In this document: piece by piece, positions 34,061-59,253 of the stretch
Numbering within the stretch: position 1 is the stretch's first letter
How the letters are laid out: the number at the start of each line of letters is the position of its first letter
Assembly: GCF_046105845.1 (NCBI RefSeq)
Contig: NZ_CP151004.1
Direction: 5' to 3' (one strand)
Length of the DNA stretch: 64,000 nucleotides
DNA from: Escherichia coli
Lineage (GTDB): Bacteria; Pseudomonadota; Gammaproteobacteria; Enterobacterales; Enterobacteriaceae
The notes under the pieces: model-generated
What the model saw: only the letters and a program-made list of their open reading frames with translations
The model's database searches: none
What the model was told of the DNA's origin: nothing
Translations under genes and position numbers: made by a program

Positions 34061-34063
34061 TAA

Positions 34064-39982: not shown

Positions 39983-40214
39983 TAATCATGTCCACTTTGT
40001 CTGCACAGACCGCCCAGGCGGCCTCCGTTTCATCCAGCAACTCGTTCAGGTCACCGTTAGTGCGCGGCGCTGCCTGCCCCAGCCGACACGGCGTCACTCG
40101 CGGACAACCACTGACGGTAAGCTGCACCTCCGGTGAGTGCCGGACGTTCCCGCAGCCGGATAATGTCAGCAGGCAAAGGAGTATCAGCCCAGCGGCGTAA
40201 ATCCTCGTTCTCAC
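39924..40214 (-). CDS. lysC: outer-membrane lipoprotein spanin (LysC/Rz1-like)
   Basis: Lipobox LLTLSGC; starts within lysB in another frame and runs past its end. Confidence 0.65.
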   Translation of the reverse strand: MRTRIYAAGLILLCLLTLSGCGNVRHSPEVQLTVSGCPRVTPCRLGQAAPRTNGDLNELLDETEAAWAVCADKVDMIIACQERNSEQTTIPAPRPQ

Positions 40215-40485
40215 GTTTCAGTTCCTCGATCCGGCGTTGTCGTTGTCTCAGCTGTGCGCTGGTCTGTTCTGCTTCGGCATAGAGCCGCGCCTGCTCCCGG
40301 TTATTGGTTTCAGTCAGAATGGACAGGCTGATAAGCTGGCTGTTGCTCTTTGCCAGTGCCTGGCTTTTGCTCTGCAGCTCGTCTGCCTGCGTGCTGATGG
40401 TCTGGCTGGCATCAGCCAGCCGCCACGTCTGCCAGCCCAGCGCCGCCAGTAATAACGCCAGCACAACCAGCAGCAACCGGTTCAT
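40057..40485 (-). CDS. lysB: inner-membrane spanin (LysB/Rz-like)
   Basis: N-terminal TM helix then coiled coil. Confidence 0.75.
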   Translation of the reverse strand: MNRLLLVVLALLLAALGWQTWRLADASQTISTQADELQSKSQALAKSNSQLISLSILTETNNREQARLYAEAEQTSAQLRQRQRRIEELKRENEDLRRWADTPLPADIIRLRERPALTGGAAYRQWLSASDAVSAGAGSAAH

Positions 40486-40859
40486 GCTGCTACCTGTTGC
40501 GCCATCTGATTACGGGTGATCCAGAAGGCAATAACGGTCAGTAGATAAAAGACCAGGGTAATAGCCCACCCCGTCCAGGCGAGACTTACAACAATCAGCA
40601 ATCGCATCACCCAACTGGTAAATACGTTTTCTTTTCGGGTAATTGTCTTCAGCAAAGATGCCCTTAACTCCTGCCAGAGCGGGCCATTCTTAATTAACGC
40701 AGCCAGTGCTACCGGAATTACCGCCCATGTCAGCAAACAGGCTACCCAAACGCCGGACGCTGCCAGTACCGGAAAAATCCCCTGCGGATACACCATTGCT
40801 GCGATTAACAGCGCCATCCATAACATCAGAAACAGTCCGCTGATTAATTTCTTTTTCAT
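40482..40859 (-). CDS. lysA: lysis timing membrane protein (LysA-like)
   Basis: ORF 40482-40931; several TM segments; start assumed at MKKKLISGLF. Confidence 0.65.
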   Translation of the reverse strand: MKKKLISGLFLMLWMALLIAAMVYPQGIFPVLAASGVWVACLLTWAVIPVALAALIKNGPLWQELRASLLKTITRKENVFTSWVMRLLIVVSLAWTGWAITLVFYLLTVIAFWITRNQMAQQVAA

Positions 40860-40860
40860 T

Positions 40861-41373
40861 TCAGTTTGCTCCCTGTAAGCACCAGGCCATCTCCCGCGCA
40901 CGGCGGTTATCCAGCCCCTGATTAAAAACACCTTTCACATAAACCCAGCGCGGCAACTGTCGGCACGCATCTGCCCAGCGCCGCTGATTGAGTAATTTCA
41001 CCAGCGTGGAACTGCAGGCATTGCCCGTTCCCACGTTGAAGGCAAACGACACCGCAGCGTCATACACCTTCTGCGGCGGCTGTTGCTTCACACACCTTTC
41101 CAGCGCCCGCTCCACACGCAGCACGTTGGAGATCAGCCCTTCTGCTGCCTGTCGCTCCGTAATGGTTTTGCCGGGAATGACGCCTGACGTATTACCAATG
41201 CCGTCGGTCCAGACACCCGCGCTGCACTGATACGGCTGCAGACGACAACCTTCGTAATCAGCAATCAGTTTCAGCCCCTCCACGGAGGTGTGAAGCTGCT
41301 GAAAACCCGGCAGCGTGGCAGCAATAGCCAGCACGGCCCCGACAAGGCAGCGTTTAACGATTGATGGATTCAT
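40861..41373 (-). CDS. K: endolysin (P2 gpK-like lysozyme)
   Basis: 170 aa. Confidence 0.8.
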   Translation of the reverse strand: MNPSIVKRCLVGAVLAIAATLPGFQQLHTSVEGLKLIADYEGCRLQPYQCSAGVWTDGIGNTSGVIPGKTITERQAAEGLISNVLRVERALERCVKQQPPQKVYDAAVSFAFNVGTGNACSSTLVKLLNQRRWADACRQLPRWVYVKGVFNQGLDNRRAREMAWCLQGAN

Positions 41374-41569
41374 AGTCCTCCCGCGTGATCTGCCCGTCGC
41401 GCAGAAGCTGGTAGGCTTTGTGTTTGTAGTACCAGTTGATAGCCAGCATCAGCACACCAATCATCAGGCCGCCCAGCGTTGAGGCATCCTTGATGGACAA
41501 ATCGCCCAGCCAGGCCAGCACAACGGCGATGCAGTACGTGATAAAGGCGCTGATTCGCTCAAGCGTCAT
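41354..41569 (-). CDS. Y: holin (P2 gpY-like)
   Basis: 71 aa with hydrophobic helices. Confidence 0.75.
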   Translation of the reverse strand: MTLERISAFITYCIAVVLAWLGDLSIKDASTLGGLMIGVLMLAINWYYKHKAYQLLRDGQITREDYESINR

Positions 41570-41572
41570 AAT

Positions 41573-41776
41573 TCAGTCCCATAGCTGGACGGTCTGCACG
41601 GTGGTGGTAGTCGGAATGTCCGGCAGCTCCACCTGCAGCCCGTGAGGTAAAAAGGGGCCGTATTCGGCAAGCCCCGGATTTGCCTTCAGTACCTGCTCCG
41701 TGACACCCTGCGTGCGCCCGTAATGACGCCAGCAAAGCGCGTCCACCGTGTCATACTGATGCGCACGCACTTTCAT
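41573..41776 (-). CDS. X: tail protein (P2 gpX-like)
   Basis: 67 aa, MKVRAHQYDTVDALCWRHYG. Confidence 0.75.
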   Translation of the reverse strand: MKVRAHQYDTVDALCWRHYGRTQGVTEQVLKANPGLAEYGPFLPHGLQVELPDIPTTTTVQTVQLWD

Positions 41777-42303
41777 CAGATAAGCTCCACTGTGCAGTGC
41801 GGCGCGTCCTGTACCCGGCTGATGGCCCAGCGGGCGTCACGCCATAAATTACCGCTGGCTTCTGCCAGTTCTTCGCCCCGCTTCACACCGGATGCCGTGG
41901 CGTCATAGTCCTGGTAACGTTCGTTGAGCATGGCGCGTGCCCAGCAGTAAACCGCGTTGAAATAGTGCTGAATGCGCTCGCTTTTGCCGTCCAGATGTTC
42001 TGCCGGAACCTCTGCCAGCGAGGCATACCCCAGCATCTGCTGGCGTCTGCGAAACTCATACAGCTCTGCGTTGACCTCCGAAATTGCCGACAGCGCAACC
42101 TGCTTTAAACGCGGCTGCGTCACCGTGCCATCAGTGCGCATCACGCTGCGAAACTCCGACAGGTCCACATCAGGCCAGAACGGCGTATTTCTGATGATTT
42201 CCGCCTGTTCCGGTGCCTGTTCTGGCGCAACAAACTTCATGCTGCTTTCTCCTGAAATAAAGGGCGGTGGACGGGGTTTTGATGTGGCAGTGCCTTTCGC
42301 CAC
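41776..42303 (-). CDS. L: head completion protein (P2 gpL-like); start uncertain
   Basis: WRDARWAISRVQDAPHCTVELI C-terminus, cf. P2 L WRDMRWAVARIQGKPRCIV. Confidence 0.8.
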   Translation of the reverse strand: MAKGTATSKPRPPPFISGESSMKFVAPEQAPEQAEIIRNTPFWPDVDLSEFRSVMRTDGTVTQPRLKQVALSAISEVNAELYEFRRRQQMLGYASLAEVPAEHLDGKSERIQHYFNAVYCWARAMLNERYQDYDATASGVKRGEELAEASGNLWRDARWAISRVQDAPHCTVELI

Positions 42304-42335
42304 CCCGTGCCGCCCGTGCGCGGGGGCACGTTCTG

Positions 42336-42986
42336 TCAGCGGCTGTCATTGCGCAGTCTGCGCTCCAGCTGCTGTTTGTCTTTTTTCACGCCACAGCGGG
42401 GATCGAGCTGTAACGCATGGTTGAGATGATTAAGGGCGGAAGCCGGATTGCTTTCACTCAGAACAGCGCCAATCGCTTTATGCAGACGCGCCCGTGACTG
42501 GTCCGGCATATCCAGACCGTCTGTCAGCTCCAGCGTCTGCAGCAACAGATCGGCATCAAAGCCGGTGGCGGCAAGCATTGCGCTCTGCGCTGCATCTGCC
42601 ATTTCCTCTGCCAGCACGGTCTGCACATTGCGGTTACCCAGCGGCATCACCCAGCCATGACGCAGGGCATGACGCCCGATCTCCAGCGCCCCGGCATAAT
42701 CTCCGGCATCAATACGCCACAGCATCACGTACATCAGCACGTCATCCTGTTGAGCGCCTCCGGCAGCCAGAACACCCTCCGCCCAGGCGGCGTACTTCGG
42801 CAGCAGCTCCACTTTGATTTCCGCTTTTTTGACCGTGGACTGAACGCCCTTGAGACGGCGTCGGTCTTCCGCCAGTTGCAGCAGCATCAGGTCATAGCCC
42901 GACGCGTGGCGAACGCTGCCGCCCTCGCGGGCGGCCTGTTCAGCCTGAACGCGCAGGCGATGCTGCCGTGCGGGACTCAGGCTCAT
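42336..42986 (-). CDS. M: terminase small/endonuclease subunit (P2 gpM-like)
   Basis: GAQQDDVLMYVMLWRIDAGDYAGALEI, cf. P2 M. Confidence 0.85.
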   Translation of the reverse strand: MSLSPARQHRLRVQAEQAAREGGSVRHASGYDLMLLQLAEDRRRLKGVQSTVKKAEIKVELLPKYAAWAEGVLAAGGAQQDDVLMYVMLWRIDAGDYAGALEIGRHALRHGWVMPLGNRNVQTVLAEEMADAAQSAMLAATGFDADLLLQTLELTDGLDMPDQSRARLHKAIGAVLSESNPASALNHLNHALQLDPRCGVKKDKQQLERRLRNDSR

Positions 42987-42989
42987 GGT

Positions 42990-44045
42990 TTATGCTCCGG
43001 CTTCTACGGCGACGCTGAAGTCGCCAATCTGGATGTTTTCCACCAGTGCTGCGCAGCGGTAGTCCTCAACCACATAGGCTTCGTTAACGGATTCAAAGTT
43101 TTCAATCCGGTCACGTTTCGGGTTGTCGATAACTGAACGGCGGCGGGTGTCTTCCTGCCAGTAGATGGACAGGTTATCCAGACGGGTGATCAGCAGCGCA
43201 TTCGGCGGGAAGAACGGCGCACGCACGGCCTGCAGGCCACCCATGCGTTTCTGGCTGATGATCATATCGGCAGCCAGTTTTTCACTGTTTTCCTGCTCTT
43301 TGTTGACCAGCGGGAAATACTTGTCAGACAACAGTTCACGACCGCAAATCACCACCAGATCGTCATCGTCCTGGTAGACCACGTCGATAAGCTCATTGAC
43401 GGCATCCATCACCACAGCGTCCAGGTTGGCATATTCGCCACCTTTCCCGACTTTCACCGCACCCGGTGTGGTTTCACCGCCCGTGGTGGTGCTGCCCATG
43501 ACGTGATCCGGTGCATCCTCACGGATTTTCTGCAGCCAGCCTTTATTCACATCCTGCAGCAGTGGGTTTTCGCTACGGTTTGAGGTTTTCGCACGCTTCA
43601 CGCCGTTAAAGCCGATCATGATGCGGTCCAGTGCCTGACGTTTCACGATCGCGTCACGAATACGCACCTGGAAATCCTGAAACTTCGCCCACAGGTCCAG
43701 CTTCGCGTAGGTCAGCACCGTGTCAAAGTTGGTCTGCTCGCATTTGTATTCCACATCGACCATCAGCGTCGGATCGACAGGCTCACGCTCTTTTGCGGTG
43801 GTATCAGTGGTTCCGGCAATGGTGCTGCCAACACCCAGCCCCAGCAGCTGACCAGACTGCTCGGTCACTGGCGTGACGTTAATCAGCGTAAGGAAAGCGG
43901 CGGATTGCTGGATCTGGTCTTCCAGCGTCTGCTGCACAGACGGCTCCACGGTGAACTTGCTGGACAGTTCTTCAACTGCCACACCGTTCAGACGCGCCAG
44001 CTGCTGCAGGTAAGCGTTAAAAGCAAAGCGGGTTTTCTTCTTCAT
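42990..44045 (-). CDS. N: major capsid protein (P2 gpN-like)
   Basis: 351 aa; KTRFAFNAYLQQLARLNG, cf. P2 N ETRFKFNAYLSRVAELNG. Confidence 0.9.
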   Translation of the reverse strand: MKKKTRFAFNAYLQQLARLNGVAVEELSSKFTVEPSVQQTLEDQIQQSAAFLTLINVTPVTEQSGQLLGLGVGSTIAGTTDTTAKEREPVDPTLMVDVEYKCEQTNFDTVLTYAKLDLWAKFQDFQVRIRDAIVKRQALDRIMIGFNGVKRAKTSNRSENPLLQDVNKGWLQKIREDAPDHVMGSTTTGGETTPGAVKVGKGGEYANLDAVVMDAVNELIDVVYQDDDDLVVICGRELLSDKYFPLVNKEQENSEKLAADMIISQKRMGGLQAVRAPFFPPNALLITRLDNLSIYWQEDTRRRSVIDNPKRDRIENFESVNEAYVVEDYRCAALVENIQIGDFSVAVEAGA

Positions 44046-44061
44046 CGGGTTTTGTGCTCCA

Positions 44062-44895
44062 TCAGCAATTGGTCAGAGTGTCAGCGGGGGCGTTACCGCC
44101 TGTTGCACGCTGGCGGTAGTCCTGGCGGCTGTCTTCATGACTCAGCTTGTCCACCAGTTCGTTAAAGGCGGTTTGCTGTGCCTGCAGGGCAGTCTCCAGC
44201 TCAGACAGGCGTTCTTCCTGCTCAGACAGGGATTTTTCGGTGCGTGCGCTCAGGTTCTGCTGCTCAGTGGCGACCAGCTCCACGGCCTTATGCACATCAG
44301 AGAACCGGGCGTCATCGGACTGCTCTTTTTTGGTAAACAGCGCCGTGACACGGGCAAACAGGGACGGTTTGTCGTCCTGGATTTCTTCCAGTTCGATCAC
44401 CGTTTCCTCTGCAGCGGTAAAGAGATTGGCAGGATTCTGCTTGCGGTTTGCCAGTGGGTTATGGGCTGCACTGGCGCTGAATGTCAGCATTTCCGTACCC
44501 AGACTGGCAGGGTCATCAGTGGCAGCCAGGCCGACCAGGTAGGCTTTGCCCGTATCAGCGAACTTCGGGCTGACTTCCATAGAGGTGAATAATTTCTGGC
44601 CTTTTTTCACCAGTTCCACCAGGGACTCCGTTGGCTCAACGTCAGCATACAGCGCCATCTTGCCTGCCAGCGGACCTTCCGTGATTTCTTCAGCAAACAG
44701 CGCCGTCACCTTGCCGTAGCGGTTAAAGGTGCTGTCCGGCAGATAAGACTTGATGTGCTCAAGGTTAATCAGCGCGGTATACACCGCCGGGTTATAGCTG
44801 GCTGCCATCTGTTCCAGCCATTCACGCTGGATTTCGCGTCCGTCGGTGGTGGCACCTTCCACCCCGATGCGAAAACGCTTTGCTTTCACTGTCAT
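44062..44895 (-). CDS. O: capsid scaffolding protein (P2 gpO-like)
   Basis: 277 aa. Confidence 0.85.
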   Translation of the reverse strand: MTVKAKRFRIGVEGATTDGREIQREWLEQMAASYNPAVYTALINLEHIKSYLPDSTFNRYGKVTALFAEEITEGPLAGKMALYADVEPTESLVELVKKGQKLFTSMEVSPKFADTGKAYLVGLAATDDPASLGTEMLTFSASAAHNPLANRKQNPANLFTAAEETVIELEEIQDDKPSLFARVTALFTKKEQSDDARFSDVHKAVELVATEQQNLSARTEKSLSEQEERLSELETALQAQQTAFNELVDKLSHEDSRQDYRQRATGGNAPADTLTNC

Positions 44896-45037
44896 GAGCC
44901 GTGCTCCGTTAGAAAAAACTTACTGGAGCCTTATGGTTGCGGTGATAGGGGCAGTGAAACAATGCGCGGTATTTGTACCGACAACCACACAAACCGCAGG
45001 CGGGGAAAGCCTTCATTCAAGGCTGTAGGTTTGTGCC

Positions 45038-46804
45038 ATGAACACCACACTAACACCCGCAGATCTCGATCCCCGTCGGCAGGCCATGCTGCTGTACTTT
45101 CAGGGATACCGCGTAGCCCGCATTGCTGAAATGCTGGGCGAGAAAGTTGCAACCGTTCACAGCTGGAAAAAACGCGACAAGTGGAGTGACTATGGGCCGC
45201 TGGATCAGATGCAGCTCACCACCGCCGCACGCTACTGCCAGCTCATTATGAAGGAGCACAAAGAAGGGAAAGATTTCAAAGAGATTGACCTGCTGGCGCG
45301 CCAGTCGGAGCGCCATGCGCGGATCGGCAAGTTTAACAATGGCGGCAACGAAGCCGACTTAAACCCTAACGTTGCCAACCGCAACAAAGGCCCGCGCCGT
45401 CAGCCGGAAAAGAACGTTTTCACCGATGAACAGATTGAGAAGCTGGAAGAAATCTTCCATTCCTCCATGTTCAACTACCAGCGCCACTGGTGGGAAGCCG
45501 GAAAAACCAACCGCATCCGCAACCTGCTGAAGTCACGCCAGATCGGCGCGACCTTCTATTTTGCCCGTGAAGCCCTGATTGACGCCCTGCTAACCGGGCG
45601 TAACCAGATTTTCCTTTCCGCCAGCAAGGCACAGGCCCACGTCTTTAAGCAGTACATCATCGACTTCGCCAAAGAAGTGGAGGTGGAGCTGAAAGGCGAT
45701 CCGATGGTGCTTCCTAACGGGGCCACGCTGTACTTCCTCGGCACCAATGCCCGCACGGCCCAGAGTTACCACGGCAACCTGTATCTGGATGAATATTTCT
45801 GGATACCGAAATTCCAGGAGCTGCGCAAAGTGGCTTCCGGTATGGCTATTCACAAGAAATGGCGACAGACCTATTTTTCCACGCCATCCAGTCTGACACA
45901 CAGTGCTTATCCGTTCTGGTCCGGTGCGCTGTTCAACCGTGGGCGCAACAGAGCCGATAAGGTGGACATCGACCTGTCCCACAGCAATCTGGCCCCCGGC
46001 CTGCTGTGCGCAGACGGGCAATACCGCCAGATAGTCACCGTGGAAGATGCGGTGCGCGGCGGCTGTAACCTGTTCGACCTTGACCAGTTGCGCATGGAGT
46101 ACAGCCCTGACGAATACCAGAACTTGCTGATGTGCGAGTTCGTGGACGATCTCGCGTCCGTGTTCCCGCTCAGCGAATTGCAGGCGTGCATGGTGGACAG
46201 CTGGGAAGTCTGGACCGACTTTCATGCACTGGCCCTGCGCCCGTTTGGCTGGCGCGAAGTGTGGATCGGTTATGACCCGGCAAAAGGTACGCAGAACGGC
46301 GACAGCGCCGGATGCGTGGTGGTGGCACCGCCAGCCGTGCCAGGCGGTAAGTTCCGCATTCTTGAGCGTCACCAGTGGCGCGGAATGGACTTTCGCGCCC
46401 AGGCTGACGCCATCAAAAAACTGACCGAACAGTACAACGTGACCTATATCGGCATCGACTCAACCGGCGTTGGTCACGGGGTTTACGAGAACGTGAAAGC
46501 GTTTTTTCCTGCCGTCCGGGAGTTTGTCTACAACCCCAACGTTAAAAACGCCCTGGTACTCAAGGCCTACGACATTATCAGCCACCGCCGTCTTGAGTTT
46601 GACGCCGGGCACACCGACATTGCGCAGTCATTCATGGCAATCCGTCGCGCCACCACCGCCAGCGGCAACCGCCCGACCTATGAAGCCAGCCGCAGCGAAG
46701 AAGCCAGCCATGCCGATCTGGCCTGGGCAACAATGCACGCACTGTTTAACGAACCACTGCAGGGCGAGTCCGCCAATACCAGCAATATTGTGGAGATTTT
46801 TTGA
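45038..46804 (+). CDS. P: terminase large (ATPase) subunit (P2 gpP-like)
   Basis: 588 aa, divergent from O. Confidence 0.9.
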   Translation: MNTTLTPADLDPRRQAMLLYFQGYRVARIAEMLGEKVATVHSWKKRDKWSDYGPLDQMQLTTAARYCQLIMKEHKEGKDFKEIDLLARQSERHARIGKFNNGGNEADLNPNVANRNKGPRRQPEKNVFTDEQIEKLEEIFHSSMFNYQRHWWEAGKTNRIRNLLKSRQIGATFYFAREALIDALLTGRNQIFLSASKAQAHVFKQYIIDFAKEVEVELKGDPMVLPNGATLYFLGTNARTAQSYHGNLYLDEYFWIPKFQELRKVASGMAIHKKWRQTYFSTPSSLTHSAYPFWSGALFNRGRNRADKVDIDLSHSNLAPGLLCADGQYRQIVTVEDAVRGGCNLFDLDQLRMEYSPDEYQNLLMCEFVDDLASVFPLSELQACMVDSWEVWTDFHALALRPFGWREVWIGYDPAKGTQNGDSAGCVVVAPPAVPGGKFRILERHQWRGMDFRAQADAIKKLTEQYNVTYIGIDSTGVGHGVYENVKAFFPAVREFVYNPNVKNALVLKAYDIISHRRLEFDAGHTDIAQSFMAIRRATTASGNRPTYEASRSEEASHADLAWATMHALFNEPLQGESANTSNIVEIF

Positions 46805-47832
46805 TGGGAAAGAGTAAGAAGAACCGCGCTGCGGCGACGAAACAGATCCAGCATAAAAACCAGACTTCAGCCGAAGCATTCAGCTTCGGTGATCCCGTTC
46901 CTGTTCTGGACCGCCGCGAACTGCTGGACTATGTGGAATGCGTACAGATGGACCGTTGGTATGAGCCACCAGTGAGTTTCGACGGCCTGGCGCGAACCTT
47001 CCGCGCCGCCGTACACCACAGCTCACCGATTGCAGTAAAGTGCAACATTCTGACCAGCACCTATATCCCTCACCCGTTGCTCAGCCAGCAGGCTTTTTCA
47101 CGTTTTGTGCAGGACTATCTGGTATTTGGTAATGCCTACCTGGAGAAACGCACGAACCGCTTCGGTGAAGTTATCGCCCTTGAACCTGCCCTGGCAAAAT
47201 ACACTCGACGCGGATTAGACCTGGATACCTACTGGTTTGTGCAATACGGTATGGCAACCCAGCCGTATCAGTTCACGAAAGGCAGCATCTTTCATCTGAT
47301 GGAACCGGATATTAATCAGGAGATCTACGGCCTGCCTGGCTATCTTTCTGCTATTCCATCCGCTCTGCTCAACGAGTCCGCCACGCTGTTCCGCCGGAAG
47401 TATTACATTAACGGCAGTCATGCAGGCTTCATCATGTACATGACCGATGCCGCGCAAAACCAGGAAGATGTGAACAACCTCCGCAACGCGATGAAAAGCG
47501 CCAAAGGTCCGGGCAATTTCCGCAACCTGTTTATGTACTCGCCTAACGGCAAAAAAGATGGCATTCAGATTATCCCGTTATCGGAAGTCGCGGCGAAGGA
47601 TGAGTTTTTGAATATCAAGAACGTGAGCCGGGACGACATGATGGCAGCACACCGTGTGCCGCCACAAATGATGGGGATTATGCCTAATAATGTTGGGGGA
47701 TTTGGGGATGTGGAGAAGGCGAGCTTGGTCTTTGTTCGTAATGAACTGATTCCTTTACAAAAAAGACTGATGGAAGTAAATGTCTGGCTCAATGAAGAAG
47801 TGATTGTATTCAATAGATACATTTTAGAGTAA
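46801..47832 (+). CDS. Q: portal protein (P2 gpQ-like)
   Basis: 343 aa. Confidence 0.9.
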   Translation: MMGKSKKNRAAATKQIQHKNQTSAEAFSFGDPVPVLDRRELLDYVECVQMDRWYEPPVSFDGLARTFRAAVHHSSPIAVKCNILTSTYIPHPLLSQQAFSRFVQDYLVFGNAYLEKRTNRFGEVIALEPALAKYTRRGLDLDTYWFVQYGMATQPYQFTKGSIFHLMEPDINQEIYGLPGYLSAIPSALLNESATLFRRKYYINGSHAGFIMYMTDAAQNQEDVNNLRNAMKSAKGPGNFRNLFMYSPNGKKDGIQIIPLSEVAAKDEFLNIKNVSRDDMMAAHRVPPQMMGIMPNNVGGFGDVEKASLVFVRNELIPLQKRLMEVNVWLNEEVIVFNRYILE

Positions 47833-47838
47833 AAAAAT

Positions 47839-47856
47839 GGGCACCATGAGGTGCCC
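47839..47856 (-). terminator. rho-independent terminator of the 474-aa NTPase gene
   Basis: Hairpin gggcacc-atga-ggtgccc followed on the minus strand by a T7 run. Confidence 0.7.
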
Positions 47857-47862
47857 AAGTTG

Positions 47863-49287
47863 TTACTTACGTGTTTCAACTATATTCAGCCCCTTATAAA
47901 GGCTTTGATGGATATATACAGAACCAGTATTTGGCAACATTAAATCAGCATCTTCACATCGGAATCTAGCCGTACCGGAATTGCCCAACCGGACACCAAT
48001 CACAGAAGCATTAAATAGAGTTTTCATCAATTCACGAGAAGTATAGCGCTTACAAAGGTCAGGCGCTTTCTCTTCAATCTTACTGATGAATTCTTCTGTA
48101 GAATTATATCTATGCTGCGTCTGACGTAAAGATTCCAATAGCTCACCAAAATGAGGGTAGAGCCTTTTGTATTCTTGTTTTAAGTCCTCAACTTTCCAAG
48201 CGCTGTACCGTTCTTCAGCTATTCTAATTATATCCTTTTTTATTTCAGAAGCATTAGCATCACAGCGTTTTTGGCATTCTTGCAAAAACTGAATAACTTC
48301 TCTTGGGCGCAAAAATGTGCGCTTCACCAAATAGTTAAACGGTGAAATACTCCCTCTCATTTCACCTTCCTCAAAAATATCATCTATAGTTATATTTTCC
48401 GGCAATCTGGCGTTCACCATATCTTTCAACAACTCTGGTGTCCAGATTATTTCTTCTTCAATTGCTCGGTGTTTATCTTTATCATCAAATTCCAGCCCTT
48501 GATAAATATCAGAGCGTAAAAATGTTACAATATGAATACCTTTGGCTCTAGTATCAGAATAACTATCATTAATATCTTTTGTTGCCTTCAACAAGCCAAT
48601 CAAAAGGCTTTTGGCATCATCCGATCCATCCCAAGAATCATCTAATCGATCAGTGGCAATTAGCACCCCAATATCTGTACAAATTTCTTTAAGCTCGTCA
48701 AGGATGATTTTTATTATTTGAGGTGTCAATGGTGCTTGCGAAGCATCCTTATTAAACCCCACAGCATATCCGAAAGCCTCAAAATTGAATGAACTTAATC
48801 CCGAGAGTAACTTCCTTGCAGTTCCCAAAGTAGTTGGCGATATACCACCATAGTTATCAGAAACAAATTTTTTAATTCTAGCAAGGGCCTCCCGAGGTCT
48901 TTTCTCTGAAAATTGCCTACCTGACCTAATAATTTCTGCCGCAGCCTCAACAGCTATTGCAAATTTCCAAGCATTACAATGTGCCTGTTCGGGTAACAAC
49001 CCTTGCTCTTGATATTGTTTTAATGCTCCCCAAGCATACTGGTCTGGGGTCATGACATTTACGATAACGTCCTGCCCATATTTTGCTCTTACCAACCTTG
49101 GGAGTTGGGTAAAGATGGATGATTTCCCAGCCCCCTTTCTTCCAAGAAAATGGGCACTATAGAAACTCAGAGCTTGCTCAACTTGAGGAGTATTGATGAA
49201 ATAATCAGCCAACCTTCTATCAGCTTCAGCATCGACAGTACCAAAGTTGAGTCCCTTAACTGTAAGGCCTAACGCATCTAACCGCAC
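47863..49287 (-). CDS. P-loop NTPase of unknown family; accessory cargo between portal gene and cos
   Basis: 474 aa, GTG start with AAGGA RBS; Walker A GRKGAGKSS; possible Walker B LIATDRLDD; AT-rich by eye. Confidence 0.6.
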   Translation of the reverse strand: MRLDALGLTVKGLNFGTVDAEADRRLADYFINTPQVEQALSFYSAHFLGRKGAGKSSIFTQLPRLVRAKYGQDVIVNVMTPDQYAWGALKQYQEQGLLPEQAHCNAWKFAIAVEAAAEIIRSGRQFSEKRPREALARIKKFVSDNYGGISPTTLGTARKLLSGLSSFNFEAFGYAVGFNKDASQAPLTPQIIKIILDELKEICTDIGVLIATDRLDDSWDGSDDAKSLLIGLLKATKDINDSYSDTRAKGIHIVTFLRSDIYQGLEFDDKDKHRAIEEEIIWTPELLKDMVNARLPENITIDDIFEEGEMRGSISPFNYLVKRTFLRPREVIQFLQECQKRCDANASEIKKDIIRIAEERYSAWKVEDLKQEYKRLYPHFGELLESLRQTQHRYNSTEEFISKIEEKAPDLCKRYTSRELMKTLFNASVIGVRLGNSGTARFRCEDADLMLPNTGSVYIHQSLYKGLNIVETRK

Positions 49288-49372
49288 GATAATTCCTTAA
49301 TTGGTAAACTAAATTTGAACTTGATGCCAACAAAGATAATATCAATTTAATTAAAAAGAAAGCTGTTGCGCG

Positions 49373-49393
49373 CGCTCGTATCCCCGCCACGCC
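49373..49393 (-). other. P2/186-type cos site
   Basis: Reverse strand reads GGCGTGGCGGGGATACGAGCG, cf. remembered P2 cohesive end GGCGAGGCGGGGAAAGCAC. Confidence 0.55.
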
Positions 49394-49772
49394 TGCCCGC
49401 TTTATGCAGTGGTTTTCATGCACATGCATGACATGAGCAAAAGCCCGCCAGTTCTGGCGGATCTGAGCAAAGACGATCCTCAATCGATCATGCGATTTCA
49501 TGCAGCATAGTCATGCACTGTCAAAGAAGTAAAAATCCGTATCTGAATGGCCACTTGAAAAACGGATCATACGGGTTTACAAAGATGAATGTTCGCTGTG
49601 AACGGGAAGCGGAAGTTAACTTTCAGATAACATAATCCATATGCACGAGAACCTCTAAAATAGAATGGGACACCTAAGCGGGGTACTTACAACGATTCTT
49701 TCCATATTCACAGTTAACACTCTGTTTGGCGTATTTTTATTCAAATAGCAAACACCAATAAAAGGAGTTTCC

Positions 49773-50108
49773 ATGAACAATATTCCCCCTATACCACAGT
49801 TAGGAATTTATGTCTCAAAAATCGATCCCACCCTACGTATCACTGTAACCGATGTTGATATTGTTGATGGTGAGGATGATTCTCCTGATGATGAATTGTT
49901 TTATTTAGTCCACTGGATCGAGGGGGAAGATGAAAGTGATATGACAGCAATGGGATTTGAGCTAGACCCAGTAGAGTGGCAGGCTTTCGTTGAATCTGAG
50001 CAATTAGTGTTTGAGCGTGATCCGTACATGGATTCAATCCCCGAAAATTCAAACTTGGCAAAGATTCGGGATTTTCTCATGAAGACTAAACAGAATGATC
50101 ATTCGTAA
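49773..50108 (+). CDS. hypothetical acidic protein
   Basis: 111 aa, D/E-rich, no motif recognised. Confidence 0.4.
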   Translation: MNNIPPIPQLGIYVSKIDPTLRITVTDVDIVDGEDDSPDDELFYLVHWIEGEDESDMTAMGFELDPVEWQAFVESEQLVFERDPYMDSIPENSNLAKIRDFLMKTKQNDHS

Positions 50109-50300
50109 GTGTAAGCATCCATCAGGAAAATGGTTTTGTAAGTGAATCATCAACTTTTAGAGAGTCTCAGACACTCCCACTTCTGCTTCTGACACAAAGC
50201 GGACGATCACTTATCAAAATAACCGCCCACCTTACGCCTTATTTCACTCATTGCCCAAACTAGCCCCCATCAGAATGAATCCTCCTGGGGGCAACATTTC

Positions 50301-50534
50301 TTAATGCAGCCAGCTGTCGTCCTCCCACACCTTCTGCATAATTTTCATCACTTGTTTTCTTTCTTCATCCAGTTGCAGTCCGGTTAGTTCCACACCGTTA
50401 GAGCTACCTTTGCGAATGCGAATTACCGTTTTGGGATACAGGGGGCGCAGATTGCGGTAAAGCTCGGATTCAAGGGCGTCCAGGGTAGACTGGCTAATCT
50501 TCTGCTCTTTATCGATCATTATTTCAATGCGCAT
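50301..50534 (-). CDS. DinI-like protein (C-terminal module of a Tum-type antirepressor)
   Basis: ORF 50301-50606; MRIEIMIDKEQ...KVWEDDSWLH DinI fold signature. Confidence 0.7.
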   Translation of the reverse strand: MRIEIMIDKEQKISQSTLDALESELYRNLRPLYPKTVIRIRKGSSNGVELTGLQLDEERKQVMKIMQKVWEDDSWLH

Positions 50535-50544
50535 AAAAGTCACC

Positions 50545-50733
50545 TCAGCTGATGACATCCATTGAGCGGTTGTATTCGTGGCTTCTGATTTTTGCCATGA
50601 GTTCATCAGTCAATTCAGAAACCCACTGCAGAGCCAGCCCCTTCTCTTCATCACTACACTCACTAGCCGCTACAAGCTTAAGAAAAAAATCAATGCGCTG
50701 GAGCTTCAAAGACTCCAAAAAATAGTCCTGCAT
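50545..50733 (-). CDS. small protein upstream of DinI-like gene (Tum N-terminal-like position)
   Basis: 62 aa; LexA box in its promoter. Confidence 0.45.
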   Translation of the reverse strand: MQDYFLESLKLQRIDFFLKLVAASECSDEEKGLALQWVSELTDELMAKIRSHEYNRSMDVIS

Positions 50734-50774
50734 CTTTCCTCCTATAACACCAAAACAATACTGTACACATAACC

Positions 50775-50793
50775 ACTGTTTATATTTACAGTA
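50775..50793. promoter_or_regulatory. LexA box ACTGTTTATATTTACAGTA
   Basis: Perfect CTGT-N8-ACAG palindrome ~40 nt upstream of the 62-aa ORF. Confidence 0.7.
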
Positions 50794-50885
50794 TATAATA
50801 ATCTTACTGATGTAAAACGTTTTTTTACGTTCATCGGCCTGATATGCCTGGTATTATTAAGAGCACGAATTGTTAACCCGCGTAA

Positions 50886-53300
50886 TTAATATAGGTTCCG
50901 CCACTTATCATCTTCCTTCAGACGCTGGTTCCGATAGAAGATACGCAGGCCTGCTCCTGACGGAATACTGCCGCCGCGAAGGAGCAAATCGACTTCTTTC
51001 TCGCTGCCATCAAATCCCCTGGACTTCAGTTCATAGACGAGCTGCTGTCGCTGATGGTCTGTAATTCGCTGTTTGTAGTCTTTACGCCGTTTCGGTTTCA
51101 CCTGGCGTAACCTTGCAGCCAGTTCCCGGCGCTCTTTTTTGCTCATACTGTGCAGGTAATCGTGCAACTCCTTGTCATTCATACGGGTAATATCCGTTCT
51201 GGAGTCCGCATCAGCTGATTTGTCTTTCCCTTGTTGGTTCAAATTTTCAGCAAGGGGACAGTTATTGCCACGAGTCCAAGGGGCGCAAGCGCCCTGGTCG
51301 GCTGCCGCCTCCTGAACGTCAACGACCTTACGAACCATTTTCCATTTCATTGCATGAGTGCAGATCTTGCCCTGTACAATGGGTGACCAGATGCCATAAA
51401 TACGAATACCGTGATCGCCATAAGCGGTCGGCTCTTCGTTAATTTCATAAGCTGTTCTGATAAGGTGATATTTGCGGGGAACCAGTACGCCGCCCTGCTT
51501 CATGATGTAGGTGGCAAAACAGCCAGCATCAGCGGCAGCCAGGATGGCATCAAGGCGCGGGTCATCCAGTACCGGCGCACCTGCTTTTTTGTCACCCTGT
51601 TGCCTTGCCGCCTGACCAGCCAGCAAGCGAAGTTCACGGTACGCCTGACGCCCCGGAATACCAAAGAAGCGGAACTGCTGAACACGATGCAGAGACGCCC
51701 AGGCATTAACGTATTCGGCGTTATCACGCAGGGATTTACCCGTTTCCTTGCTGATCTCGCCAGCCAGACCACGTCCGTCAATGTTCTTACTGATGTATTT
51801 CGCGATGTAGCTTGTCGGCGTTCCTTTGCGCGGGTTTATCAGCTCAGACTTAAAGCGTGGACCCGTGTTATTGCCCAGTTCCTCGCGGTCTTCACGGATG
51901 GCAAACTTACGCAACAATGCAGTAATGGCGCGGCGGTCTTTTTTGCGCATGAAACACATGAGATGCCAGTGCACAGTACCGTCATGGTGCGGCTCAGCCA
52001 CCCGCACGCCATACCAGCGCAACCCGGCTTTGTGCATAGCCTTACGAAATGCAGCAAACATGCCGACCAGATAATCGCTGCTTTGTCTTACCGTCGCATT
52101 TGTCCAGGTTGGGTTTGGTCTGCCGTTATTGAGCGTAGAATGGAAACGTGACGGACAGGTAATGGTGTAGAAAACGGCGCAGTCACCACGCATTTCCGCG
52201 ATAAGCTCCAGACCTTTAACACAGGCCATCATCTCATTGCGGCGGTGCGCCGGGTTGCTGCTGCTGGCGTTTACCACGTCTTCCATATCCAGCGTGTCGC
52301 CGTCTTCGTTCACCAGTTCATGAGAACGGAAAAACTCCAGCGACTTGCGGCGCTGCTCACGTTTATGCGTCACTGCTTCATAGCTGACATAGGGAGATGC
52401 TTTTTTGCTGACCAGGCAGACAGCACGCAACTGCTCTTCCCGCCATTCGCAACGTATCTTCCACAATTTTCGATACCACCAGTCGGCGCAAAGCATACGT
52501 GCCAGCGAACCCGGTATGAGTTCATAGGGCACGGGTTTGCGGCGGTTTCTTTTCCGACGGAGTTTCTCAAACGCAGGCGGGATAACATCCAGACGCAGGG
52601 TTTCCGCTGCCACCTTTTCCCATGTCTTGCGGATTTCTTCTGGCTTAACGTCATCGGTGGCATACAAATCACCACAAGCGGCCTCAAGACACATGCTCAT
52701 ATGCGCTGCTACCAAGGTGGACAGGCGTTTTACCTGATCCTGACTCATTTCAGGCAGGATCAGCAGGCCCTCAAGCCCTTGATGGCTTGCCATAAAACGG
52801 AAAGAAGCGGATAGCTGACTGTCGCGTACATACTCCAGTCGCTCCAGACATGACTTAATCGTCTCACGCAAATAGCGGGAATAAGCCTTTGGCCTGCCCA
52901 GGCTGCTGAAGTATTCGATACGTTGCATCAGCGGCTTGCTGATGTGGGTGGGCTGGGCGCTGACGTCCGCCAGAATGACCATGTCCGGGTTAAAACGCTG
53001 CTGCTCATGCGCCAGCTTTGCCCGACTAATGAGATTATCCTGCTCCATTTCGCGCTGGACAGGATCACGGGATTCATTAAAGAAATAACGCTCCCAGACC
53101 TGCTCACTCAGTGCATCGCGGCGCAGCTGTTCCTGCTCGTTATCGGCAGCGTACAGAGTGATCATGTTTGAAAGTGCAGACTCCGGCGCAACTTCCGCCG
53201 GGTCCAGATAAGGGTTAATGGCCTTTTTCGGGCCGTTCCATGAAAATGCTGCAGCGGCCTCGTTAAAGCCGCTAGAGTTGCTCATATCATCATGACTCAT
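50886..53300 (-). CDS. A: replication initiation endonuclease (P2/186 gpA-like)
   Basis: 804 aa; rolling-circle motif region HWHLMCF. Confidence 0.85.
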
Positions 53301-54154
53301 ACACGCACCTCGTACACAGCAGAACTATCCACGCCACGCGAAGGATCAAATCCCACCCAGCAGCGCGCCCCGGAAACAGCAATGATTTCTGTTGCAGATT
53401 TACTCTCGCCAGCCGACACGCCGATGCTGCGTTTTGCCTTGATGTAGTGGTGAGTGAAATTGCGATACAGCGAACGAATCAGGGATGTGTCACTGTTAGA
53501 AACAATGACCGGATGACCTTCAGATGATCGATGTTCAAGAACGGATGCCAGGTGATACTGGTCATCCTCAGTGAAGCCATCAGTGTGATAGCCGGAAAAC
53601 GTACCGTCATAAGGCGGATCGCAATACACCACATCCCCCGCCTTCAACATCGCCAGCGTTTCATCAAAGCTGGCGCAGATAAACGTTGCTCGCTGGGCTT
53701 TTTCTGCAAATTTGCGAATTTCTTTTTCAGGGAAATACGGATTTTTATAATTCCCGTAGGGAATGTTGAAATGCCCGCTCTTGTTATAGCGACATAACCC
53801 ACGGTAACCATGACGATTGAGATACAGGAAATATACCGCTTTCATGAAATCAGTAATTTCAGTGGAGTAATTAAACTCCTGCCTTATGTTGTAATAAGCC
53901 ACCTCCCTGTTTGCTTCCTCAAATAAAGCTCTGGCACGAGATATAAACGCCTCGCAATCAGCAGCAACCTTTTTATAGAGGTTGATTAAATCAGGATTAA
54001 TATCCGCAACAAGATAGCTGGGGTAATCCGTCTCTATCATCACAGCACAAGAACCCGCGAAAGGTTCAACCAGTCGCGGGCCAGCAGGAAGGTATTTTTT
54101 CAGTTCTGGCATAATGGCGGTTTTATTACCCGCCCATTTCAGGATGGTGCTCAT
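53297..54154 (-). CDS. DNA adenine methyltransferase (Dam-like)
   Basis: ORF 53297-54214; motif [12 protein letters not shown] and motif IV DPPY. Confidence 0.85.
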
Positions 54155-54378
54155 ACAGCACCTCCGTTGTAATGTTTGCCTTTCAGCTCTGCGATTTCCT
54201 GACAGGTAATGCAAAGCTGCACACCCGGAATGGCGCGACGTCGTGCTGGCGGAATTGGTGCTTCACACTCAATGCAAAGCACGCGGGATACGCCCGGCGT
54301 TTTGGCGCGGGCAGCACGGATATGACGCTGGCGTTCTTCTTCAACGCGCTGCTGTACGAGATCCATTGCATCAGCCAT
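54151..54378 (-). CDS. TraR/DksA-family C4 zinc-finger protein
   Basis: CIECEAPIPPARRRAIPGVQLCITC. Confidence 0.75.
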   Translation of the reverse strand: MADAMDLVQQRVEEERQRHIRAARAKTPGVSRVLCIECEAPIPPARRRAIPGVQLCITCQEIAELKGKHYNGGAV

Positions 54379-54617
54379 CAGTGGATCTCCTGCGCTTCGT
54401 TCTGGATTGCTTCAGCAGTCACACGCAGCAGTTCTGCCGCTTCGACGTGGTTTAGCTGGCGGGATGTGATATGAGACGCCAGGCTATCAAGGCGAGCTGC
54501 CATTGCTTCAGCCCTTGCCCGGCGTTCTTCCAGACGAGCCTCTGTCAGTAAAATATTAAGCCCTGCATCATCCGGTCCGGTTTTAGTCATGAGGGTTTCA
54601 ATATTACGCATAATCAA
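54378..54617 (-). CDS. hypothetical early protein
   Basis: 79-aa ORF in the early operon. Confidence 0.4.
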   Translation of the reverse strand: MIMRNIETLMTKTGPDDAGLNILLTEARLEERRARAEAMAARLDSLASHITSRQLNHVEAAELLRVTAEAIQNEAQEIH

Positions 54618-54678
54618 TTCTCCTGAATTTAGATAAAGGGATGCCTGGCGGGTTTACGCCATGAATTTCATTAGTTGG

Positions 54679-55020
54679 TTAATTCGGCATGGTTAGCCGT
54701 CTGGGAAATAAGCTCACCACTGCACGAAAATGATTCATTGCTTTAATCAGCTCCCGCTTTTCGTCAGTGGTCAGCTCATTAATGCTGATGCTATGACGTT
54801 CAGCTGGAATTTTTGCCATAAAGAATATGGCAGCCAGTGCCCGTTTATTTTGTTCATTATTGATATCCCGTGGATCACGCATATCTTTAATAAACCGCTC
54901 AAGCTCTGACTCAATATTCAGGCCAAAAACTTTCGCTCTTAATTCCGCAATATGATTAAGTCCATTCAGGCGTTCACCGGGGCTTAATGGAACAGTCGCC
55001 GCAGCGCCTTCAATAGCCAT
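54679..55020 (-). CDS. hypothetical early protein
   Basis: 113-aa ORF. Confidence 0.4.
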   Translation of the reverse strand: MAIEGAAATVPLSPGERLNGLNHIAELRAKVFGLNIESELERFIKDMRDPRDINNEQNKRALAAIFFMAKIPAERHSISINELTTDEKRELIKAMNHFRAVVSLFPRRLTMPN

Positions 55021-55184
55021 TGGTTCCCCCGTTTTTTCGTTGATAGTTCTGCCAGCAATTCATCTTGTGAACGGCACGGATGCCAGCGTTTACCATCCTC
55101 ACCCATGATCCAGCCGTGACCGTAGTGCATTGCCGGACTTTGTTTTACCAGCAGCGATGCAAATGATGGTTCTTTCGTCAGCAT
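54984..55184 (-). CDS. hypothetical early protein (186 fil position)
   Basis: ORF 54984-55214; start assumed at MLTKEP. Confidence 0.35.
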   Translation of the reverse strand: MLTKEPSFASLLVKQSPAMHYGHGWIMGEDGKRWHPCRSQDELLAELSTKKRGNQWLLKALRRLFH

Positions 55185-55191
55185 AAGCACC

Positions 55192-55707
55192 TCACAGCAA
55201 ACCGAATGAAGCACCGAGGCCAGTCACGGTATCAACTGCACTCGCCATCGCAGGATTAGCCTGTAAACGGGCCTGCAATGAAACAGCAGCCAGCGCCATC
55301 AGTCGTGTAACAGAGTTAATGCTGCTGATCGCATCACGACGGCCTGCACTGGTTTTTACATCGCCAGAAACCGCACCTGCCGCGACACGCCCTATCTCTG
55401 CAGTTGCACTCATGACGTAATGCGGCAGTTTCTCTTTTGCCACCTCATTAATCGGTACACATGGCAGGCAGTGAATCTGTGCCAGAAAGCCATCTACCAG
55501 CGTTGAATCTTCAGTCAGATCGGTAAGCAGCCAGATTTCTGGCGCATTGAGCTGATGCGGTTGATCTGGGTTGAGTTTGTTTCGCAGAGTCTGGACATTC
55601 ATTCCTGCACGTTCTGCCAGCTTCGCCATATTGTGACGAAGTGCAAAAGCTCTACAGGCTTCATCAAAATGCGGGTGTTTGGAAACTTGGTAATCAAACA
55701 TGGTCAA
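55192..55707 (-). CDS. cII: CII-type lysogeny establishment regulator (phage 186 CII-like)
   Basis: [45 protein letters not shown] closely matches remembered 186 CII. Confidence 0.85.
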
Positions 55708-55733
55708 TGCCTCTGATGTATTTCAGAATCGAA

Positions 55734-55955
55734 CTAATTAAGGTTTAGATTGCATTCTGAAAGCGCATCAACGGTCATGGCTGCTATGTTGATCATCACT
55801 TTTTCGCGTTTTTTATCTTTCCGCAGACGGTGACGGATAAGACGTCCATCAGCCAACATGTCATTGATAGTATCGATGGATAGCCCTGTCAGCTCGCTAT
55901 AACGTTCAATAGTCACATGAGGCGTGGTAAGAGTGATTGAAATGTTAGGTTTCAT
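55734..55955 (-). CDS. Apl/Cox-type excisionase/regulator
   Basis: 73 aa, first gene of the lytic operon, divergent from cI. Confidence 0.55.
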
Positions 55956-56080
55956 GATGCAACATTCCTCGTTTAATGTTGATTAATCAGGACGAATACG
56001 GATCGTTTGTATTTTGTGAACATCATAAACATACGATCGCATAATGAAATCGTCAAGACAAAAGTTCACTTGGAGTGACC
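55956..56080. promoter_or_regulatory. immunity switch region between apl-like gene and cI
   Basis: Intergenic; imperfect inverted repeat gatcgtttgtat...atacgatc (56001-56039). Confidence 0.4.
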
Positions 56081-56650
56081 ATGAATTTGGAGAAAGGCGG
56101 ACGAGGCGCTATAGAGCGCATGGTAGAAGCATATGGCTTCAAGACTCGACAGGCGTTGTGCGATCACTTAGGAATCTCTAAAAGTACTCTCGCCACACGC
56201 TATATGCGTGACTCATTCCCTGCTGAATGGGTAATCCAGTGCGCACTTGAAACGGGCGCCTCGCTTAACTGGCTCACGACCGGACATGGTTCAAAGCAAA
56301 CTTCAGGTAATACAAATACTATGGAAGTCGTTAAATATGTATTATCTGATGGAACCTTGCAGGAAGATGGTTTTTATATTTTCGATAAAGAATTTCTACC
56401 ATCTACGCTCAAAAATCCGTTTGTAATCACCGATAACAATTCCGTTTTTATTTGCGATAAAGAGTTTAACGATATTCGTGACGGCAAATGGGTAATAAGT
56501 ATTGATGCCGAAGTAACAATCCGCGATATCACTCGTTTACCTGGTGGAAGAATCTTAGTTGAAGGTGGAAATAGGGCTTTCGAATGTAAAAAAGAAGAAA
56601 TCGAAATTATTGGAAAAATTATAAGCATAACAGTTAAGTACTTTGAGTAA
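56081..56650 (+). CDS. cI: CI-type immunity repressor (186 CI-like)
   Basis: ATG at 56081 after GGAG; N-terminal HTH (…AYGFKTRQALCDHLGISKSTLATRY…) and CI-like C-domain. Confidence 0.75.
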   Translation: MNLEKGGRGAIERMVEAYGFKTRQALCDHLGISKSTLATRYMRDSFPAEWVIQCALETGASLNWLTTGHGSKQTSGNTNTMEVVKYVLSDGTLQEDGFYIFDKEFLPSTLKNPFVITDNNSVFICDKEFNDIRDGKWVISIDAEVTIRDITRLPGGRILVEGGNRAFECKKEEIEIIGKIISITVKYFE

Positions 56651-56700
56651 TATAGGAATGTTTTTATGCTTGGTAAAGCATTTGTTGTGGTGTAAAAAAT

Positions 56701-57624
56701 ATGTCAACTCAAAAATTAAAATTTAGCCATATCAAAAACGATCTGAAAGCAATAGTTATGCAGAATCGTGGAGGGCAAAAAGTTATTGAGCGTATACTCC
56801 TAGCCTATGGCTTCAAGTCACGACAGGCATTATGTAATCATCTAGGTATTTCCCAAAGTACTATGGCCAACAGATATGCACGTAATACCTTTCCTGCAGA
56901 TTGGGTTGTTATATGTTCCATAGAAACAGGAGCATCAATTGAATGGTTAGTTCTTGGTTCAGATACTGCTCCTTCATCAGAGCAATATTCTGAAAAACAT
57001 GCCGTTAATGGCCTTTGCAATGAAGTATACATTCCCACTATAAAGTTCGATAATGAAAAACTCATGAATTTTAACCGAGGGGGTAAGGCAACAATAGAAC
57101 GAATTGTCGAGGCTTACGGTTACAAAACGCGCCAAGCATTAGCTGATCACCTAGGTATTTCAAAAAGCACATTAGCCACACGATACATGCGTGACATTTT
57201 TCCTGCAGACTGGGTTTTGCAGTGTGCAATAGAAACGGGCCATTCTATTGAATGGATTTCATTTGGTACAGGAGAAATGAAAAACACAAAAAATAAAGAT
57301 ACTTTAACATTAGTGAAAAAAGTATTAATCAATGGCAAGTTAATAAATGATGGCTCATATTTATTTGACCCATGCTTTCTACCTTCCAATTTAAAAAATG
57401 CATTCGTAGTATCTACCGAAGACTCTGAATTAATATGTGAAATGGGTTTTAAAGATGTACATGATGGTAAGTGGCTAGTAAATATTGATGGAGAGAATTC
57501 ATTTAGAATGATAACTCGACTACCTAAAGGACGAGTTTATATTTCATCCCAAAATCACTCTTTTGAATGTTCGCTTACAGACATTGAGTTTATTGCAAAA
57601 GTTATTATAAGTTGTTTACATTAA
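56701..57624 (+). CDS. CI-repressor paralog with a duplicated N-terminal HTH domain
   Basis: 307 aa; two tandem copies of GG..IER...AYG.K.RQAL..HLGIS.ST.A.RY.R..FPA.WV, then a CI-like C-domain; AT-rich. Confidence 0.6.
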   Translation: MSTQKLKFSHIKNDLKAIVMQNRGGQKVIERILLAYGFKSRQALCNHLGISQSTMANRYARNTFPADWVVICSIETGASIEWLVLGSDTAPSSEQYSEKHAVNGLCNEVYIPTIKFDNEKLMNFNRGGKATIERIVEAYGYKTRQALADHLGISKSTLATRYMRDIFPADWVLQCAIETGHSIEWISFGTGEMKNTKNKDTLTLVKKVLINGKLINDGSYLFDPCFLPSNLKNAFVVSTEDSELICEMGFKDVHDGKWLVNIDGENSFRMITRLPKGRVYISSQNHSFECSLTDIEFIAKVIISCLH

Positions 57625-57649
57625 GTAAATTTTTCATGGAGACTTCATA

Positions 57650-59167: not shown

Positions 59168-59229
59168 AAGCATTGTTTGAATAAACTAAACCATACATTG
59201 ACCACTGGTCAAACATACAGTTAAATTTA

Positions 59230-59248: not shown

Positions 59249-59253
59249 TTATT

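Follow-up and report, generated by a model that had tools for sequence, protein, structure and literature searches.

The 152-bp block at 49368-49519 of the window, the whole 64-kb stretch of Escherichia coli DNA analysed here, is very probably the cos site of a complete 34.7-kb P2-like prophage (Peduoviridae, Fels-2/SEN8-like); our confidence that the site is active in this prophage is somewhat lower than our confidence in its identity. The mechanism proposed for it is based on homology with P2, 186 and P4. After excision and replication, a terminase composed of a small subunit (gpM) and a large subunit (gpP) would recognise the cos region of about 150 bp, probably by means of the same-orientation GCATG repeats and an AAAACC...AAAGCGGGCA box, both of which lie on the gpA/tum side of the cut. 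The enzyme would then nick the two strands 19 nt apart, the minus strand between 49394 and 49393 and the plus strand between 49374 and 49375, to give virion DNA with 5'-GGCGTGGCGGGGATACGAG ends that would re-anneal after injection. In the virion chromosome, the Sll1717 ATPase cargo gene and gpQ would lie at the left end, and the acidic ORF, the DinI/Tum module and gpA at the right end.

The initial annotation had proposed a P2/186-type cos site at 49373-49393, and a direct reading of the minus strand from 49393 down to 49373 gives GGCGTGGCGGGGATACGAGCG, exactly as it had claimed. The first 13 bases of this sequence, GGCGTGGCGGGGA, are also the start of the annotated 186 cohesive end, ggcgtggcggggaaagcat (NC_001317, feature 1..19), as the same annotation had stated; the 64-kb window contains this 13-mer a single time, with 0.01 occurrences expected from dinucleotide-preserving shuffles. 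On alignment to the cos sequences of both phages, the check that the annotation had suggested, the minus-strand 19-mer at 49375-49393 agrees with 186 at 15 of 19 positions and with P2 (ggcgaggcggggaaagcac) at 14 of 19. The 19-mer has the GC-rich cohesive-end form GGCG(A/T)GGCGGGGA... of P2-family cos sites, and it aligns in the same register as the cos features annotated in 186, P2 and PsP3, all of which begin at the homologous G. Assignment to the P2 family of cos sites is upheld by these comparisons, but neither the 186 nor the P2 sequence is matched: judged by its sequence, the site is of the Fels-2/SEN8 subtype (...ATACGAG) rather than of the 186 subtype (...AAAGCAT). The 21-nt span first put forward likewise holds in part, consisting of the predicted 19-nt overhang plus two bases of the adjoining conserved CGCGCGC.

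The complete 19-mer is found (19/19) as a 'putative cos site' at the start of the record of Salmonella phage SEN8 (NC_047753), and the SEN8 genome announcement reports it as a cos sequence identified by annotation, with no method stated (PMC5427200). Together with CGCGCGC, it is also present in Fels-2, SopEPhi, RE-2010 and E. coli phage vB_EcoM-813R9, as well as in two Klebsiella prophage records examined, with a third, 4LV2017, one base off (GGCGTGGCGGGCATACGAG). In Escherichia phage 500465-1 (CP025900.1), the overhang carries a 1-nt deletion (GGCGTG-CGGGGATACGAG); the differences in 500465-1 and 4LV2017 may be sequencing errors or natural cohesive-end variants. A full-text literature search with the 19-mer returned the SEN8 paper as its sole match, and no mapped virion ends for the ...ATACGAG subtype were found in the accessible literature, in which the published annotations rest on analogy. 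Record ends were considered as a stand-in for mapped termini and set aside: only the SEN8 record starts exactly at the site, by an unstated method, and nothing can be learned from the Midge record, which stops 9 nt into the overhang, or from the Cartapus record, which stops about 33 nt short of it; both ends look like arbitrary cuts made in assembly. Within the P2 family, the overhang is known to vary in its 3' third: the mapped ends of the Ralstonia phage phiRSA1 read GGTGAGGCGGGGTCCAAC (PMC5694545), and the cos of Smp131, assigned by analogy to P2, reads GGCGTGGCGGGGAGACGAG (PMC3931495).

The functional unit is the 152-bp block, which is larger than the 21 nt first annotated; it consists of the 7-bp CGCGCGC facing the portal gene, the 19-nt overhang and, toward gpA/tum, about 126 bp more (Table 1). 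BLAST against phage records delimits a stretch of about 155 bp rather than one of 21 nt, and in 13 reference phages its edges are sharp: homology ends right after CGCGCGC, and the continuation is different in each phage. Matches in E. coli genomes, many of them at 99.5-100% identity, start at about 49366. A scan of IMG/VR with an exact 36-mer yielded at least 120 contigs, in which positions -10 to +26 are identical by construction, such that the independent evidence for conservation comes from the block positions outside that interval. When 110 distinct IMG/VR sequences are compared with the window without gaps, identity lies at 0.66-1.0 between -126 and +26 and falls to about 0.25 beyond these limits, and the 30-mers just beyond the two block edges take 94 and 69 distinct forms. 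The block is present in 1263 of 5426 complete E. coli genomes (about 23%), and none of twelve sampled E. coli matches bears a cos feature annotation there. Within the block, the 55-bp core shows ungapped identities to the window of 54/55 for Fels-2, 53/55 for SEN8, 47/55 for ENT90, 44/55 for 186, 43/55 for P4 and 42/55 for P2. Ziermann & Calendar (1990), as cited in PMC3931495, PMC5247547 and PMC5694545, are credited with a 55-bp cos core that is common to P2, P4, 186 and their relatives and is needed for packaging; on the alignment, these literature '55 bp' would correspond exactly to 49368-49422.

Table 1. Positions of the cos block, its internal elements and the surrounding prophage features in the window.
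Feature	Position	Strand	Basis or remark
P2-like prophage, 34,696 bp core to core	25685..60393		Empty-site comparison; 13-bp direct repeat
Terminase small subunit, gpM homologue	42336..42986	-	Pfam Phage_term_smal 2e-40; phrog_74
Terminase large subunit, gpP homologue	45038..46804	+	Pfam Terminase_5, Terminase_6N, Terminase_6C
Portal, gpQ homologue	46801..47832	+	Pfam Phage_portal; RefSeq annotation of 99.7% identical locus
Bidirectional terminator-like hairpin in portal/cargo gap	47838..47857		Terminator scan; inner edge of cargo slot
Cargo: Sll1717-family P-loop ATPase, 474 aa	47863..49287	-	NCBIfam NF047389 2.5e-84
Whole conserved non-coding cos block, 152 bp	49368..49519	-	Alignment of 13 reference phages
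P2-family cos core: TGCATGAAAACCACTGCATAAAGCGGGCA + 19-nt overhang + CGCGCGC	49368..49422	-	Ungapped alignment, 55 bp
Predicted 19-nt 5' cohesive end, GGCGTGGCGGGGATACGAG	49375..49393	-	Identity to SEN8, Fels-2 and others
Proximal TGCATGTGCATG pair adjoining AAAACC box	49417..49428	-	Second copy begins 55-bp core
GC-rich inverted repeat CCGCCAG/CTGGCGG, then CTTTTG	49444..49461	-	Consensus terminator scan, 7 pairs
Distal same-orientation (T)GCATG triplet	49489..49517 (49512-49517, 49499-49504, 49489-49493)	-	Motif count, conservation
Acidic 111-aa ORF, pI 4.05	49773..50108	+	Composition; phrog_17127, unknown function
SOS module: LexA box, 62-aa ORF, DinI/Tum-like gene	50301..50791	-	Pfam DinI 1e-22; phrog_189, phrog_698
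Replication endonuclease, gpA homologue	50886..53300	-	Pfam Phage_GPA 4e-128

Two kinds of internal element recur among the relatives of the block. On the strand that reads GGCG..., TGCATG occurs four times in the 152 bp, compared with 21 times on both strands of the 64-kb window, and the Poisson probability of the enrichment in the block is about 1e-6 for TGCAT and about 2e-7 for GCATG. GCAT starts at -123, -110, -100 and -28 in more than 93% of 87 distinct relatives, with the copy at -28 kept in 99%; the distal triplet and the proximal GCAT copy are also found in P2, 186, P4 and ENT90. These repeats are candidate terminase recognition elements. Inside the block, at about -70 to -50, lies a GC-rich inverted repeat with positional counterparts of different sequence in ENT90 (CGGGGCCA/TGGCCCCG), 186 (CGCCAG/CTGGCG) and P4 (CCGCGCC/GGCGCGG); on alignment, P2 has no inverted repeat at the same position. 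A T run follows the repeat only in the Fels-2 type and in ENT90, in which it scores as terminator-like, the homologous repeat of 186 and P4 having none. The repeat of the window (7 bp, -13.3 kcal/mol) is weaker than those of its relatives (-17 to -23 kcal/mol), compared with which it lacks two outer base pairs. The hairpin may serve both as an element of cos and as a terminator.

The extent of the prophage that owns the site was established from an empty site in E. coli Ec1119 (NZ_CP126600), which joins both flanks with a 13-bp overlap. The att repeat is imperfect over these 13 bp, reading ATGGGTATTTTGT at 25685-25697 and ATGGGTAATTTGT at 60381-60393, and a direct search gave no exact long att repeat. 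The gene set comprises ogr, gpD, tape measure, tube, sheath, fibre, baseplate, lysis and head genes along with CI, Cox, CII, a Dam-type methylase, gpA and an integrase, and the long ORFs are intact. P2-type gpM, gpP and portal genes are carried on the same element as the site, providing it with a cognate terminase, and the 13-mer unique in the window marks a single cos on a genome whose 34,696 bp compare with 33.6 kb for P2 and 35.2 kb for SEN8. That the genome is complete, of capsid-compatible size and equipped with a single cos supports a functional site, short of proving it.

The P2-like prophage is itself integrated inside a second, Qin-like lambdoid prophage (flanks 22098-24691 and 60394-64000), with ynfN, cspI, gnsB and DUF2514/Rz-like lysis genes set apart from a DUF1441 (Nu1-like) gene and a GpA-type large terminase gene. 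Insertion at the 13-bp core, as shown by Ec1119, has therefore left the lambdoid lysis cassette and the lambdoid packaging genes on opposite sides of the P2-like element. Immediately upstream of the DUF1441 small-terminase-like gene, at 24700-24950, is a non-coding stretch (...CCCGCCCCGTGGCAGGGCCCCCCCCCAGGGAGGACCC...) that is very rich in GC and contains homopolymers; the lambdoid phage's own cos would be expected there. Two further regions of the P2-like prophage were recorded in passing. Between the immunity repressor and the integrase, a second cargo locus (56075-59167) contains a 186-type CI (56075-56650), then a 307-aa protein (56701-57624) that combines a CI C-terminal domain with two HTH domains of the CI type, and lastly a 505-aa KAP-family P-loop NTPase that matches the PADLOC candidate defence family PDC-S20 (9e-78) and, more weakly, PifA and QatA. 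In the region 33065-35057, a DNA invertase gene (33065-33676; phrog_125) adjoins opposed short ORFs (33659-34060 and 34064-34483, plus strand) and is accompanied by a tail-fibre assembly gene, which suggests an invertible tail-fibre segment, that is, a host-range switch of the Mu G or P1 C type.

The surroundings of the site are those of a P2-family cos. The genes run in the order gpA(-), DinI, cos, cargo, gpQ(+), which in P2 orientation is A...cos...Q(-), as in NC_001895 and NC_001317; the 5' end of the overhang reads toward Q, and the portal gene reads toward cos, as it does in P2 and 186. The gpP homologue is 63% identical to P2 gpP, and the genes for the gpN capsid and gpO scaffold proteins are located between the gpM and gpP homologues. 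A position of cos between gpA and gpQ, adjoining a cargo hotspot, is described for P2-like phages (PMC9122126), and the cos-adjacent hotspot is credited to Dodd & Egan (1996) and Nakayama (1999) as cited in PMC5694545; the conserved block is the fixed point between the two hypervariable cargo slots of this known hotspot. The NTPase cargo that the initial annotation had placed between Q and cos was recovered as the 474-aa P-loop ATPase gene between the portal gene and the site, and its acidic ORF and Tum module lie on the other side, as it had also stated. The two cargo slots that are well known to flank cos in P2-like phages are filled here by the ATPase gene, the acidic ORF and the DinI module. 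As cited in PMC5694545, Dodd & Egan (1996) describe the same layout, with cargo replacing the DNA between cos and a terminator.

The cargo is low in GC: 39.6% for the ATPase gene, 23.7% for an 80-bp spacer and 40.8% for the acidic-ORF region, against 50.6% for the prophage. The Sll1717-family ATPase gave no match in Pfam or PADLOC, and a weak NCBIfam anti-phage match falls well below the cut-off. At the cos locus, this cargo was found in 1 of 5426 complete E. coli genomes, in a record (NZ_JBRERE010000002.1, 127851-142751) that is 99.7% identical over 2.9 kb and is labelled as the 149.8-kb plasmid pE100181_149; either a P2-like prophage resides on a large plasmid there or the replicon is mis-assigned. 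In E. coli E300010 (NZ_CM128601.1, 3255786-3267824), a degraded P2-like prophage carries retron St85 in the cos-Q cargo slot and an IS100 in the cos block, about 13 bp beyond the overhang; a 39-nt E. coli match that had been considered as a P4-like satellite with the same cos subtype proved to be this IS100-interrupted block. On the gpA side, a perfect LexA-box consensus, CTGTTTATATTTACAG, at 50776-50791 stands upstream of the operon formed by the 62-aa ORF (50545-50733) and the DinI/Tum-like gene (50301-50606; RefSeq homologue 50301-50534), an arrangement that suggests induction by the SOS response. Two further LexA-box matches, at 4567-4582 and 4595-4610, are located in the other prophage.

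Resemblance to the 186 cohesive end by chance has nothing in its favour except the shortness of the 13-nt match originally noted. It is effectively refuted by the shuffles cited above and by the extension of the match into 55-bp and 152-bp homology with many P2-family cos regions, at the genomic place and in the orientation proper to a P2-family cos. A different doubt is whether the site, although homologous to cos, is an inactive relic of a defective or trapped prophage that no longer packages its DNA. The nesting of the P2-like prophage in the Qin-like lambdoid prophage, the two outer pairs missing from the central hairpin and the existence of degraded examples of the locus, such as the interrupted block of E300010, would fit such a history. 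However, the prophage retains the full P2 gene complement with its long ORFs intact and a normal att-to-att size of 34.7 kb, its core differs from Fels-2 at one position and from the viable phage SEN8 at two, and 135 E. coli records carry the 152-bp block at an identity of 99% or more; we regard such a relic as improbable.

It is more improbable still, to the point of being hardly credible, that the block is kept mainly for a small protein, a small RNA or the terminator of the SOS operon and that the cos-like 19-mer is incidental. An 81-aa ORF (ORF81; 49256-49501, minus strand) does span the block and matches phrog_28685, a family of unknown function, at 1.7e-27; some phage records annotate a hypothetical protein here, and the hairpin with its T run scores as terminator-like. 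However, the variable alignment columns of ORF81 are spread evenly over the three codon positions (14/15/12), 45 relatives out of about 110 have its frame interrupted within the block, every C-terminal tail is different, and neither Pfam nor NCBIfam yields a match. ORF81 was rejected as a gene, its PHROG match being outweighed by the tests of codon position and frame integrity, and the best reading of phrog_28685, and of the hypothetical proteins annotated in some Klebsiella phage records, is that they are ORF predictions made over conserved non-coding DNA. An RNA gene was likewise rejected: Rfam covariance models run over 47700-50900 gave no match at an E value of 1 or better, and the block folds no better than shuffled sequences (z = 0.17). 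Conservation peaks instead at the overhang and the 55-bp core, which are common to P4, a genome that has no such gene.

If the block is a cos site, a proposal of three linked parts can be built on it, which we advance tentatively and which, taken as a whole, is rather unlikely to hold. Its parts are that the Fels-2/SEN8 cos (ATACGAG) might form a packaging-specificity class apart from P2/P4 (AAAGCAC) and 186 (AAAGCAT); that the abrupt breaks in homology 7 bp and about 126 bp from the cut might be the points at which cargo is swapped in recombination mediated by cos ends; and that the position-conserved inverted repeat might be a DNA-level terminase recognition element, doubling in the Fels-2 type as the terminator of the SOS/tum operon. 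A separate class, if real, would limit both the exploitation of these helpers by P4-like satellites and the annealing of cos ends in co-infection. The feature and the hotspot flanking it are already known, and the 19-mer is already published as a cos site; with the block in roughly one in four complete E. coli genomes, no new question is opened by its presence here. The main value of the assignment is one of annotation, as the site would set both termini of the virion DNA of the window prophage, and a small annotation artefact is flagged, namely phrog_28685 and the 'hypothetical proteins' annotated across cos in several phage records.

Among known systems, the closest is the SEN8/Fels-2 group (Felsduovirus), whose cos, ggcgtggcggggatacgag, has the identical 19-mer followed by the same CGCGCGC. 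The 152-bp architecture, the GCATG repeats and the hairpin with its T run are shared, and in both cases the site is situated between a DinI-like gene and variable cargo adjoining gpQ. By contrast, the cargo on both sides is completely different, the hairpin of the window is without the two outer pairs, and the host of the window prophage is E. coli rather than Salmonella. The resemblance to 186 and PsP3 (Eganvirus), with cos ggcgtggcggggaaagcat, is less close: the 13 leading nucleotides of the overhang are the same, with differences at positions 14, 16, 17 and 19, and the ungapped core identity is the 44/55 given above. The GCATG layout, the position of the central inverted repeat and the order tum...cos...portal agree with the window, and the SOS-controlled p95-tum operon of 186 parallels its LexA-boxed 62-aa ORF and DinI/Tum module. 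However, 186 has no cargo gene between cos and its portal gene W, with orf97 on the other side, and its central repeat has no T run, the terminator of the tum operon (t95b) being located outside the block.

P2 and P4, with cos ggcgaggcggggaaagcac, share with the window the same 19-nt register, GCGCGC after the overhang, an AAAACC...AAGCGGGC box and the distal triple GCAT repeat, with core identities of 42/55 for P2 and 43/55 for P4. In both, hotspots for accessory or defence genes adjoin cos, as in the window. The P2 overhang matches at 14 of 19 positions, with base 5 a T in the window rather than an A; P2 has no central inverted repeat, and on its right-end side old and tin take the place of the acidic ORF and DinI module of the window. 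The arrangement as a whole resembles the P2-like hotspot, for which Rousset et al. (2022) and Dodd & Egan (1996) give variable genes that flank cos on either side within the gpA-gpQ interval; the likeness extends to portal-side cargo between cos and the post-portal terminator and to the low GC of that cargo. The window departs from a defence hotspot in that its Sll1717-family ATPase has no PADLOC match, and a defence role for this cargo is only putative.
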